This document shows positions 51,956 through 61,100 of a stretch of DNA of 64,000 bases, piece after piece. The notes beneath the pieces were generated by a model. That model was not told where the DNA came from, did not search any database, and was given only the letters and a program-made list of their open reading frames with translations. Numbering within the stretch: the stretch's first letter is position 1; each line of letters begins with the position of its first letter. The DNA is from Escherichia coli. Its GTDB lineage: Bacteria > Pseudomonadota > Gammaproteobacteria > Enterobacterales > Enterobacteriaceae. The stretch lies in NCBI RefSeq assembly GCF_017348835.2, contig NZ_CP071375.1. The stretch is one strand, 5' to 3'. The position numbers and the translations under genes were made by a program.

Positions 51956-52927
51956 ATGAGTAAGATTTTTGAAGATAACTCGCTGACTATCGGTCACACG
52001 CCGCTGGTTCGCCTGAATCGCATCGGTAACGGACGCATTCTGGCGAAGGTGGAATCTCGTAACCCCAGCTTCAGCGTTAAGTGCCGTATCGGTGCCAACA
52101 TGATTTGGGATGCCGAAAAGCGCGGCGTGCTGAAACCAGGCGTTGAACTGGTTGAACCGACCAGCGGTAATACCGGGATTGCACTGGCCTATGTAGCTGC
52201 CGCTCGCGGTTACAAACTCACCCTGACCATGCCAGAAACCATGAGTATTGAACGCCGCAAGCTGCTGAAAGCGTTAGGTGCAAACCTGGTGCTGACCGAA
52301 GGTGCTAAAGGCATGAAAGGCGCAATCCAAAAAGCAGAAGAAATTGTCGCCAGCAATCCAGAGAAATACCTGCTGCTGCAACAATTCAGCAATCCGGCAA
52401 ACCCTGAAATTCACGAAAAAACCACCGGTCCGGAGATCTGGGAAGATACCGACGGTCAGGTTGATGTATTTATTGCTGGCGTTGGGACTGGCGGTACGCT
52501 GACCGGCGTCAGCCGCTACATTAAAGGCACCAAAGGCAAGACCGATCTTATCTCTGTCGCCGTTGAGCCAACCGATTCTCCAGTTATCGCCCAGGCGCTG
52601 GCAGGTGAAGAGATTAAACCTGGCCCGCATAAAATTCAGGGTATTGGCGCTGGTTTTATCCCGGCTAACCTCGATCTCAAGCTGATCGATAAAGTCATTG
52701 GCATTACCAATGAAGAAGCCATTTCTACCGCGCGTCGTCTGATGGAAGAAGAAGGTATTCTTGCAGGTATCTCTTCTGGAGCAGCTGTTGCTGCGGCGTT
52801 GAAACTACAAGAAGATGAAAGCTTTACCAACAAGAATATTGTGGTTATTCTACCGTCATCGGGTGAGCGTTATTTAAGCACCGCATTGTTTGCCGATCTC
52901 TTCACTGAGAAAGAACTGCAACAGTAA
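51956..52927 (+). CDS. cysK: Cysteine synthase A (O-acetylserine sulfhydrylase A)
   Basis: 323-aa ORF with the PLP-lysine region (…[11 protein letters not shown]…). Confidence 0.95.
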
Positions 52928-52950
52928 TGCCAGCTTGTTAAAAATGCGTA

Positions 52951-52978
52951 AAAAAGCACCTTTTTAGGTGCTTTTTTG
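52951..52978 (+). terminator. Intrinsic terminator after cysK
   Basis: AAAAAGCACC-ttttta-GGTGCTTTTTTG hairpin. Confidence 0.85.
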
Positions 52979-53046
52979 TGGCCTGCTTCAAACTTTCGCC
53001 CCTCCTGGCATTGATTCAGCCTGTCGGAACTGGTATTTAACCAGAC

Positions 53047-53072
53047 TAATTATTTTGATGCGCGAAATTAAT
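53047..53072. promoter_or_regulatory. ptsH upstream promoter region with Mlc/NagC-type AT-rich palindrome (TAATTATTTTGATGCGCGAAATTAAT)
   Basis: Imperfect TTATTTT…AAATTAA inverted repeat about 250 bp upstream of ptsH; resembles the reported Mlc operator at ptsH P0 (from memory). Confidence 0.45.
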
Positions 53073-53310
53073 CGTTACAGGAAAAGCCAAAGCTGAATCG
53101 ATTTTATGATTTGGTTCAATTCTTCCTTTAGCGGCATAATGTTTAATGACGTACGAAACGTCAGCGGTCAACACCCGCCAGCAATGGACTGTATTGCGCT
53201 CTTCGTGCGTCGCGTCTGTTAAAAACTGGCGCTAACAATACAGGCTAAAGTCGAACCGCCAGGCTAGACTTTAGTTCCACAACACTAAACCTATAAGTTG
53301 GGGAAATACA

Positions 53311-53568
53311 ATGTTCCAGCAAGAAGTTACCATTACCGCTCCGAACGGTCTGCACACCCGCCCTGCTGCCCAGTTTGTAAAAGAAGCTAAGGGCTTCACT
53401 TCTGAAATTACTGTGACTTCCAACGGCAAAAGCGCCAGCGCGAAAAGCCTGTTTAAACTGCAGACTCTGGGCCTGACTCAAGGTACCGTTGTGACTATCT
53501 CCGCAGAAGGCGAAGACGAGCAGAAAGCGGTTGAACATCTGGTTAAACTGATGGCGGAACTCGAGTAA
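53311..53568 (+). CDS. ptsH: Phosphocarrier protein HPr
   Basis: 85-aa ORF starting [23 protein letters not shown] (His15 region). Confidence 0.97.
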
Positions 53569-53612
53569 TTTCCCGGGTTCTTTTAAAAATCAGTCACAAG
53601 TAAGGTAGGGTT

Positions 53613-55340
53613 ATGATTTCAGGCATTTTAGCATCCCCGGGTATCGCTTTCGGTAAAGCTCTGCTTCTGAAAGAAGACGAAATTGTCATTGACCGGAAAA
53701 AAATTTCTGCCGACCAGGTTGATCAGGAAGTTGAACGTTTTCTGAGCGGTCGTGCCAAGGCATCAGCCCAGCTGGAAACGATCAAAACGAAAGCTGGTGA
53801 AACGTTCGGTGAAGAAAAAGAAGCCATCTTTGAAGGGCATATTATGCTGCTCGAAGATGAGGAGCTGGAGCAGGAAATCATAGCCCTGATTAAAGATAAG
53901 CACATGACAGCTGACGCAGCTGCTCATGAAGTTATCGAAGGTCAGGCTTCTGCCCTGGAAGAGCTGGATGATGAATACCTGAAAGAACGTGCGGCTGACG
54001 TACGTGATATCGGTAAGCGCCTGCTGCGCAACATCCTGGGCCTGAAGATTATCGACCTGAGCGCCATTCAGGATGAAGTCATTCTGGTTGCCGCTGACCT
54101 GACGCCGTCCGAAACCGCACAGCTGAACCTGAAGAAGGTGCTGGGTTTCATCACCGACGCGGGTGGCCGTACTTCCCACACCTCTATCATGGCGCGTTCT
54201 CTGGAACTACCTGCTATCGTGGGTACCGGTAGCGTCACCTCTCAGGTGAAAAATGACGACTATCTGATTCTGGATGCCGTAAATAATCAGGTTTACGTCA
54301 ATCCAACCAACGAAGTTATTGATAAAATGCGCGCTGTTCAGGAGCAAGTGGCTTCTGAAAAAGCAGAGCTTGCTAAACTGAAAGATCTGCCAGCTATTAC
54401 GCTGGACGGTCACCAGGTAGAAGTATGCGCTAACATTGGTACGGTTCGTGACGTTGAAGGTGCAGAGCGTAACGGCGCTGAAGGCGTTGGTCTGTATCGT
54501 ACTGAGTTCCTGTTCATGGACCGCGACGCGCTGCCCACTGAAGAAGAACAGTTTGCTGCTTACAAAGCAGTGGCTGAAGCGTGTGGCTCGCAGGCGGTTA
54601 TCGTTCGTACCATGGACATCGGCGGCGACAAAGAGCTGCCATACATGAACTTCCCGAAAGAAGAGAACCCGTTCCTCGGCTGGCGCGCTATCCGTATCGC
54701 AATGGATCGTAAAGAGATCCTGCGCGATCAGCTCCGCGCTATCCTGCGTGCCTCGGCTTTCGGTAAATTGCGCATTATGTTCCCGATGATCATCTCTGTT
54801 GAAGAAGTGCGTGCACTGCGCAAAGAGATCGAAATCTACAAACAGGAACTGCGCGACGAAGGTAAAGCGTTTGACGAGTCAATTGAAATCGGCGTAATGG
54901 TGGAAACACCGGCTGCCGCAACAATTGCACGTCATTTAGCCAAAGAAGTTGATTTCTTTAGTATCGGCACCAATGATTTAACGCAGTACACTCTGGCAGT
55001 TGACCGTGGTAATGATATGATTTCACACCTTTACCAGCCAATGTCACCGTCCGTGCTGAACTTGATCAAGCAAGTTATTGATGCTTCTCATGCTGAAGGC
55101 AAATGGACTGGCATGTGTGGTGAGCTTGCTGGCGATGAACGTGCTACACTTCTGTTGCTGGGGATGGGTCTGGACGAATTCTCTATGAGCGCCATTTCTA
55201 TCCCGCGCATTAAGAAGATTATCCGTAACACGAACTTCGAAGATGCGAAGGTGTTAGCAGAGCAGGCTCTTGCTCAACCGACAACGGACGAGTTAATGAC
55301 GCTGGTTAACAAGTTCATTGAAGAAAAAACAATCTGCTAA
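53613..55340 (+). CDS. ptsI: PTS Enzyme I
   Basis: 575-aa ORF with phosphohistidine region (…[15 protein letters not shown]…). Confidence 0.97.
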
Positions 55341-60267: not shown

Positions 60268-61100
60268 TAATGACCTACCACACGCCGACCAAAGCGACTT
60301 TGCAGAGTGTTAATTGAGAACAGCAGCAGCAGAGATGCCGCGAGGATCACCGAAGCAATCGCGCTCGCTGCCGGGTAATCAAACTCCTGCAAGCGCACAA
60401 AAATCATCAGCGACGTCACTTCCGTCTTCCAGGCGATGTTCCCGGCGATAAATATCACCGCGCCAAACTCACCAAGACTACGGGTAAACGACAACGCCAC
60501 GCCCGCCACCAGCGCCGGAGAAAGTTCCGGCAGCACCACTTTGCAGAAACTCTGCCAGCGCGTTGCACCAAGCGTTTCCGCCGCTTCTTCATATTCCGGG
60601 CCTAACTCTTCCAGCACCGGCTGCACGGTACGCACCACAAACGGAATGCTGGTAAAGGCCATCGCCACCGCAATCCCAAGCCAGGTGTAGGTGACTTTGA
60701 TATCAAACTTCGCCAGCCATTCACCGTAAAAACCGTTCACGGAAAAGAGCGAGGCCAGCGTTAAACCGGCGACTGCCGTTGGCAGCGCAAAGGGTAAATC
60801 CATCAGCGCATCAAGCAGCGTGCGGCCAGGGAAGCGATAACGAGTTAAGATCCACGCCATCAGCAGGCCGAAAACGCCGTTAAAAATCGATGCCACAAAC
60901 GCCGACAGCAGCGTCACTTTGTAGGCTGCGACCACCTGCGGGTTGGTGATCACCTCCCAGTACTGCGCCCAGCTCATCTGGGCCAGCTGCATCACCAGCG
61001 CGGAGAGTGGCAGGAGCAAAATCAGGCAAACAAACAGCAGACTGGTGCCGAGGCTTAAGGTAAAGCCCGGCAGCACGCGTCTTGATGAAACTGCAAACAT
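60267..61100 (-). CDS. cysU: Sulfate/thiosulfate ABC transporter permease
   Basis: 277-aa permease ORF; stop/start overlaps with cysW and cysP. Confidence 0.95.
   Translation of the reverse strand: MFAVSSRRVLPGFTLSLGTSLLFVCLILLLPLSALVMQLAQMSWAQYWEVITNPQVVAAYKVTLLSAFVASIFNGVFGLLMAWILTRYRFPGRTLLDALMDLPFALPTAVAGLTLASLFSVNGFYGEWLAKFDIKVTYTWLGIAVAMAFTSIPFVVRTVQPVLEELGPEYEEAAETLGATRWQSFCKVVLPELSPALVAGVALSFTRSLGEFGAVIFIAGNIAWKTEVTSLMIFVRLQEFDYPAASAIASVILAASLLLLFSINTLQSRFGRRVVGH

Follow-up and report, generated by a model that had tools for sequence, protein, structure and literature searches.

The ptsHI-crr genes encode the general PTS proteins and the central signal protein of catabolite repression, and their promoter logic is a textbook case. 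The question raised by this locus is what a perfect inverted repeat is doing in the ptsH promoter region, where an earlier note had drawn attention to it as a possible transcription-factor site. The repeat was studied in a window of 64,000 nucleotides (the whole stretch of E. coli DNA that was analysed), which contains the cysK-ptsH-ptsI-crr region of E. coli K-12 type. The favored reading, with a probability of roughly 0.55, is that the palindrome is the core of the known ptsH promoter P1 with its twin starts, that an adjacent CRP site sets the choice between the two starts, and that the symmetry is largely a by-product. As a finding, the palindrome is ordinary and largely known already. With its placement on the P1 starts, the idea of a new operator proves to be a false lead, and the combination of 80-species conservation with published 5'-end data maps the entire cysK-ptsH control region at the level of single bases.

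An intergenic region of 383 bp separates the end of cysK at 52927 from the start of ptsH at 53311. Window coordinates are converted to NC_000913.3 coordinates by adding 2,480,453. The sole mismatch to MG1655 over 52900-53700 is a C/T difference at 52916, within cysK. The intergenic region is at least 99% identical in 5417 of 5428 matching records, that is, it is fixed within E. coli. Conservation beyond the species was followed in 80 ptsH loci, one per species, from across Enterobacterales, whose upstream regions were aligned; the cysK terminator, the P0 -35 and extended -10 elements, the P1 -10 block, and the CRP-, Mlc-, and Cra-like sites listed below emerge from this alignment as phylogenetic footprints. 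The core alignment consists of the 49 sequences that share the TTTAAT element described below and that are essentially Enterobacteriaceae in the strict sense. The features that frame the region are the following.

52950 to 52977, plus strand: intrinsic terminator of cysK with a 12-bp stem and a T-run, the upstream bound of the regulatory region.
53147 to 53163, no strand: the palindrome TGACGT-acgaa-ACGTCA (TGACGTACGAAACGTCA), a perfect inverted repeat of 6+5+6, 17 bases in all.
53311 to 53568, plus strand: ptsH (HPr) coding sequence, driven by the P0 and P1 promoters.

The sequence confirms the perfect TGACGT-N5-ACGTCA repeat of the earlier note. Its symmetry centre is G53155, located 156 nt 5' of the ptsH ATG, which agrees with the distance of about 150 bp first given. 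The palindrome is statistically unremarkable. Perfect inverted repeats with 6-bp arms are abundant, with 293 in the window at spacers of 0-10 nt and 32 with a 5-nt spacer, so the palindrome is not unusual. Shuffling of the 383-bp intergenic region gives a mean of ~1.1 such 6-bp-arm repeats, and the figure of 0.12 expected holds for this one pattern alone, picked after being seen. The view that the palindrome is not a terminator also holds. An intrinsic terminator was not called at the palindrome by the terminator scan, and the stem is followed on its 3' side by AGCGGTC and not by a T-run. Full-length ptsHI-crr reads from SMRT-Cappable-seq begin at the palindrome, which is another point against a terminator. 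Additionally, no Rfam family match overlaps 53147-53163 at E-values up to 10, and a full-text literature search with the palindrome and neighbouring strings returned no match and no binding site reported there.

SMRT-Cappable-seq of MG1655, which captures triphosphorylated 5' ends only, lists ptsHI-crr starts at 2533499/2533500, 2533600, 2533607, and 2533731 in its supplementary tables (PMC6131387). The 2533600 entry comes from the M9 sheet with 74 reads and the 2533607 entry from the Rich sheet with 225 reads, the two media being M9 with 0.2% glucose and tryptone/yeast extract (PMC6131387). The coordinate convention was calibrated on 32 start sites of the same table. On the reverse strand, 11 of 11 values coincide with a purine. 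On the forward strand, a purine stands at the stated base for 5 of 21 values (a pyrimidine for 16 of 21) and at the next base for 15 of 21. Forward-strand table values are therefore taken to be one base low (0-based), on the strength of the purine excess at +1 and the 11 of 11 on the reverse strand. The calibrated starts and the promoter elements placed around them are as follows.

53011 to 53039, plus strand: probable P0 promoter, with a -35 element TTGATT (53011-16), a 17-bp spacer and a -10 element TATTTA (53034-39), assigned by conservation and geometry.
53047 to 53048, plus strand: P0 start sites, calibrated from 2533499/2533500.
53133 to 53141, plus strand: P1 -10 block GGCATAATG, present in nearly all Enterobacterales.
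53135 to 53140, plus strand: probable -10 hexamer CATAAT of the upstream P1 start, ending at -8.
53142 to 53147, plus strand: probable -10 hexamer TTTAAT of the downstream P1 start, ending at -8, placed by geometry from the mapped start.
53148, plus strand: upstream P1 start (P1b-type), a G, calibrated from 2533600, the representative P1 start in M9 with glucose.
53155, plus strand: downstream P1 start (P1a-type), a G, calibrated from 2533607, the representative P1 start in rich medium.

Both P1 starts, as mapped primary 5' ends, fall inside the palindrome and place it in the start-site region. G53148 is the second base of the left arm and G53155 is the exact centre. Counted from the upstream start, the palindrome runs from -1 to +16, and counted from the downstream start, it runs from -8 to +9. 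The two starts are 7 bp apart and lie 100 and 107 bp from P0. We take the start at 53155 to be the one named P1a and the start at 53148 to be P1b. Because it sits on both P1 start points, the palindrome is read as core-promoter and 5'-leader DNA and not as the site of a new regulator. The suggestion of a transcription-factor site gained no positive support. Comparison with mapped promoter elements, which the earlier note had proposed as a check, puts the palindrome within the characterised P1 start region, where it has a different explanation; this is largely the outcome that the note had itself named as counting against its suggestion.

The -10 assignments fit these starts, since a -10-like hexamer is found 8 nt 5' of each P1 start, within the 6-8 nt looked for. 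The final T of TTTAAT, at 53147, is also the first base of the palindrome. CATAAT has a conservation of 1.00 and is identical in 48 of 48 core species, and TTTAAT has a conservation of 0.96, a value raised artificially by the selection of the core set, which was made on similarity in this very region. The P0 elements show identities of 0.90 and 0.99, and P0 features a probable extended -10 element, TGgTATTTA (53031-39), in which the TG at 53031-32 ends the 17-bp spacer. A sigma-70 consensus scan called no promoter in the region, its thresholds being such that they miss these promoters.

The same 5'-end data contain some further observations. Another primary 5' end lies at 53279 (table value 2533731), 32 nt 5' of the ptsH ATG (PMC6131387). 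This end is 8 nt after a -10-like TAGACT (53265-70) and falls inside a conserved leader stem-loop. In M9, 21 of the 74 reads from the upstream P1 start stop at a 'novel TTS' within ptsI, at ~53891 (NC_000913.3 2534344), which yields ptsH-only transcripts, and in rich medium the entry for the downstream start continues as far as the crr terminator (PMC6131387). In a separate study, a 2023 Sci Adv paper, 17 positions around P1b of the pts promoter were mutated, and a 12-bp motif 'around P1b' is claimed as a binding site of ampicillin, in competition with CRP (PMC9995076).

The known regulators of ptsH have candidate sites elsewhere in the intergenic region. The best ones there, by simple consensus scoring, can be listed together.

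52977 to 52992, no strand: CRP-like site I, TGTGG-cctgct-TCAAA, 8 of 10 to consensus, conserved across the order.
53050 to 53072, no strand: Mlc/NagC-type operator TTATTTTGATGCGCGAAATTAAT, TT-N9-AA with AT-rich flanks, identity 0.95.
53092 to 53107, no strand: Cra (FruR)-like operator GCTGAATCGATTTTAT (GCTGAATCGATTT...), 10 of 14 to consensus, identity 0.95, overlapping CRP-like site II.
53105 to 53120, no strand: CRP-like site II, TATGA-tttggt-TCAAT, 7 of 10 to consensus, identity 0.90.

CRP-like site I is centred at 52984.5, which is about -62.5/-63.5 of P0. The Mlc/NagC-type operator occupies +3 to +25 of P0, where the Mlc footprint presumably lies at '+1 to +25 of P0'. The CRP consensus used was TGTGA-N6-TCACA, a 16-bp motif with even symmetry, and the Cra consensus is GCTGAAnCGnTTCAGC. 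The Mlc/NagC consensus is an imperfect dyad with TT-N9-AA and AT-rich positions at +/-7 to +/-11 (PMC1874608). TT-N9-AA with at least 7 of 10 AT flank bases occurs only at 53032-54 and 53049-72, and neither of these overlaps the palindrome.

These comparisons bear on the idea that the palindrome is a weak or atypical site of a known ptsH regulator, either CRP, Mlc/NagC, or Cra. The best CRP alignment that overlaps the palindrome reaches 5 of 10, and its 17-bp odd symmetry differs from the 16-bp even symmetry of a CRP site. The palindrome lacks the TT-N9-AA pattern with AT-rich flanks, and the sole match of at least 10 of 14 to the Cra consensus is the one at 53092-53107. Good CRP, Mlc, and Cra sites are present nearby. 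Judged from these motif matches, a site of a known regulator appears effectively refuted and would be very improbable, and the reluctance of the earlier note to assign the palindrome to the known CRP or Mlc sites was justified, with Cra to be added to them. Sites for Fis, PurR/RbsR, GlpR, MetJ, RutR, and a generic LacI-family protein were also considered by inspection of the sequence against consensus sequences and are unsupported; the only resemblance is that of the half-site-like CGAAACG to RbsR/PurR.

The favored reading of the palindrome as the twin-start core of P1 can be set out base by base. P1 would consist of two overlapping sigma-70 promoters with a 7-bp offset. The left arm would hold the start nucleotide and the first transcribed bases of the upstream promoter (CATAAT, G53148), and the same bases would double as the discriminator of the downstream promoter (TTTAAT, G53155). 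The spacer would carry the downstream start, and the right arm would be early transcribed sequence of both promoters. The choice of start is probably governed by CRP-like site II, centred at 53112.5, which is -42.5 when counted from the downstream start and -35.5 when counted from the upstream one. In the first of these positions the site would have class II geometry and activate the downstream start, whereas in the second it overlies the -35-like element TTGgtt and would cover the -35 region of the upstream promoter. This geometry agrees with the observed pattern of start usage, upstream in glucose minimal medium and downstream in rich medium. Most likely, the dyad symmetry is then a by-product of promoter constraints and common descent, with the side effect that upstream-start and P0 transcripts could form a small hairpin while downstream-start transcripts could not.

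Two known systems resemble this arrangement. Ryu and Garges reportedly described in 1994 a pts P1a/P1b 'promoter switch' with two close ptsH starts ~100 bp 3' of P0, in which CRP-cAMP is said to favor one P1 start and to disfavor the other (a switch from P1b to P1a). The mapped starts, 7 bp apart and 100 and 107 bp from P0, would fit that switch, as would the position of the CRP-like site and the change of start between glucose and rich medium. The gal P1/P2 promoters are sigma-70 promoters a few bp apart that share one CRP site, which activates the one positioned downstream with class II geometry and occludes the other, so that the choice of start site reports the cAMP level. The likeness in this case is an overlapping sigma-70 pair with one CRP-like site; however, the offset is 5 bp in gal and 7 bp here, and the gal model has no palindrome at the start site.

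The conservation of the palindrome was also proposed as a check. The exact repeat with 6-bp arms is rare, being present in 5 of 81 Enterobacterales sequences, but the form with 5-bp arms, TGACG-N7-CGTCA, is the usual form in most Enterobacteriaceae. The sixth pair was gained in E. coli proper through an A-to-T change at 53152, the equivalent position being an A in cryptic-clade E. coli, Citrobacter, and Salmonella. The palindrome is absent in Serratia, Hafnia, Rahnella, Yersinia, Pectobacterium, and Erwinia, where only GGCATAATG is kept. Core-set sequences match the window with a mean identity of 0.76 for the left arm, 0.70 for the spacer, and 0.84 for the right arm, compared to 0.95 for the Mlc-type operator, 0.95 for the Cra-like operator, and 0.90 for CRP-like site II. 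The variable stretch just 3' of the palindrome has a core-set mean identity of 0.38. The palindrome is under some constraint, less than the nearby operators, because its arms and spacer range over 0.70-0.84 and the operators over 0.90-0.95.

The conservation pattern contains points that stand against a pure by-product. The 0.84 of the right arm (+11 to +16 of the upstream start, +4 to +9 of the downstream start) is above the usual need of a promoter. Complementarity is kept through two-sided changes in some lineages, and the symmetry centre sits exactly on the downstream start, where repressor operators are typically located. These features raise the alternative that the palindrome is the operator of some as yet unnamed dimeric repressor that blocks RNA polymerase at both P1 starts. 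A 17-bp dyad centred exactly on +1 of the downstream start resembles the dyads of ~17 bp in +1-centred repressor operators, the arms are above background conservation in Enterobacteriaceae and are conserved above the spacer in Klebsiella and Raoultella, and E. albertii has TGATG...CATCA, in which both sides of one pair are changed. In contrast to such operators, there is here no cognate protein and no match to a known motif, either to CRP, Mlc, and Cra or, by inspection, to the others considered, and conservation is below that of three nearby operators. Mixed half-sites such as TGATA...CGTCA are common, and Enterobacter sp. kpr-6 has an unrelated palindrome in its place, the hairpin GGCGA-tactt-TCGCC. 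The core has no second TGACG-N7-CGTCA copy within the 64-kb window, and the literature searched reports no binding site here. A dedicated operator thus seems unlikely. The sole other match to the loosened core GACG-N7-CGTC within the window is at 60412.

The favored reading of a twin-start core leaves the small RNA hairpin as a side effect, and the hairpin could instead be the feature under selection, in which case the CRP-driven switch of starts would also switch mRNA stability. RNA from the upstream start, 5'-GACGUACGAAACGUC, is predicted to form a 5-bp hairpin of -5.7 kcal/mol that makes up 95% of the ensemble when folded alone. The predicted hairpin starts at +1 with 0 unpaired 5' nucleotides, within the 0-2 nt looked for, whereas RNA from the downstream start is predicted to begin in the loop and to have ~9 unpaired 5' nucleotides. 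RppH and RNase E need unpaired 5' nucleotides in E. coli mRNA decay, and 5' stem-loops of the ompA type are protective. The 5' UTR of ompA is said to contain a stabilising 5'-terminal stem-loop, as Emory, Bouvet, and Belasco reportedly found in 1992. The predicted ptsH hairpin is similar in that it begins at the first nucleotide and has no single-stranded 5' extension, but its stem of 4-5 bp is much shorter and weaker, and it is not robustly conserved.

Evidence across species points in both directions for a selected hairpin. Folding predicts a +1 hairpin at the corresponding start for 35 of the 49 core Enterobacteriaceae sequences versus 1 of 26 outgroup sequences. It is missing in the other 14 core sequences, and the losses include five Kluyvera, three Pseudocitrobacter, Buttiauxella, and Cedecea. 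Most species have just a 4-bp stem from +1 with a 7-nt loop and -3.8 kcal/mol, and the z-score in the window sequence is only -2.66 for the isolated hairpin and -0.68 in a 31-nt context. Changes that preserve pairing favor selection on the RNA, namely the double changes in E. albertii and in Enterobacter sp. kpr-6 and a G:U-compatible change in the stem in K. michiganensis. Pairing is present in 76% of the cells of the 49-sequence alignment. Of 500 shuffles, 0 attained the 5 double-change cells and 3 attained the covariation score of 0.151 versus 0.119, in a shuffle control that ignores relatedness, and covariation support for the palindrome hairpin is weak. RNAalifold on the 49 sequences found no consensus pairs at the palindrome, although it does find strong conserved stems further 3' in the same ptsH leader.

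The use of different P1 starts in different media is consistent with a role of the hairpin. Glucose-grown cells would have the hairpin 5' end and cells with active cAMP-CRP would have the free 9-nt 5' end, and the choice of start would in this way be coupled to stability that depends on RppH and RNase E. Taken over both sides of the evidence, a selected hairpin is possible but doubtful, and the coupling to mRNA stability built on it is just as tentative. If true, start switching that alters 5' structure and stability would be a neat general coupling of promoter choice to mRNA decay.

The leader 3' of the palindrome has features of its own. The proximal ptsH leader (53243-53303) is much better conserved than the palindrome across all 80 Enterobacterales loci. 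RNAalifold predicts a first stem in which GGCUAAAGU (~53243-51) pairs with ACUUUAGUU (~53268-76) around a variable loop, and a second stem in which CCaCAAC (53277-83) pairs with GUUGgGG (53297-303), covering the Shine-Dalgarno region. Most pairs of these proximal stems do not vary at all, so covariation is small. The Enterobacter cloacae complex, Lelliottia, and Huaxiibacter (L002, L008, L010, L013, L019, L038, L052) lack the variable leader segment, in that ~65 bp (53167-53231) are missing right after the retained palindrome and ...CGTCAGCG abuts CTAACAATACAGG. Rahnella-type loci (L060, L075, L078, L079) feature a different near-perfect palindrome, CCTAGATCTAGG (CTTAGATCTAGG in L078), which lies ~20 nt past the GGCATAATG block, further into the P1 leader. 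Additionally, the leader of Serratia rubidaea (L018) past GGCATAATG contains a G+C-rich hairpin followed by T8 (CCGCCGGTACGGTTTTTTTT), which resembles an attenuator or terminator.
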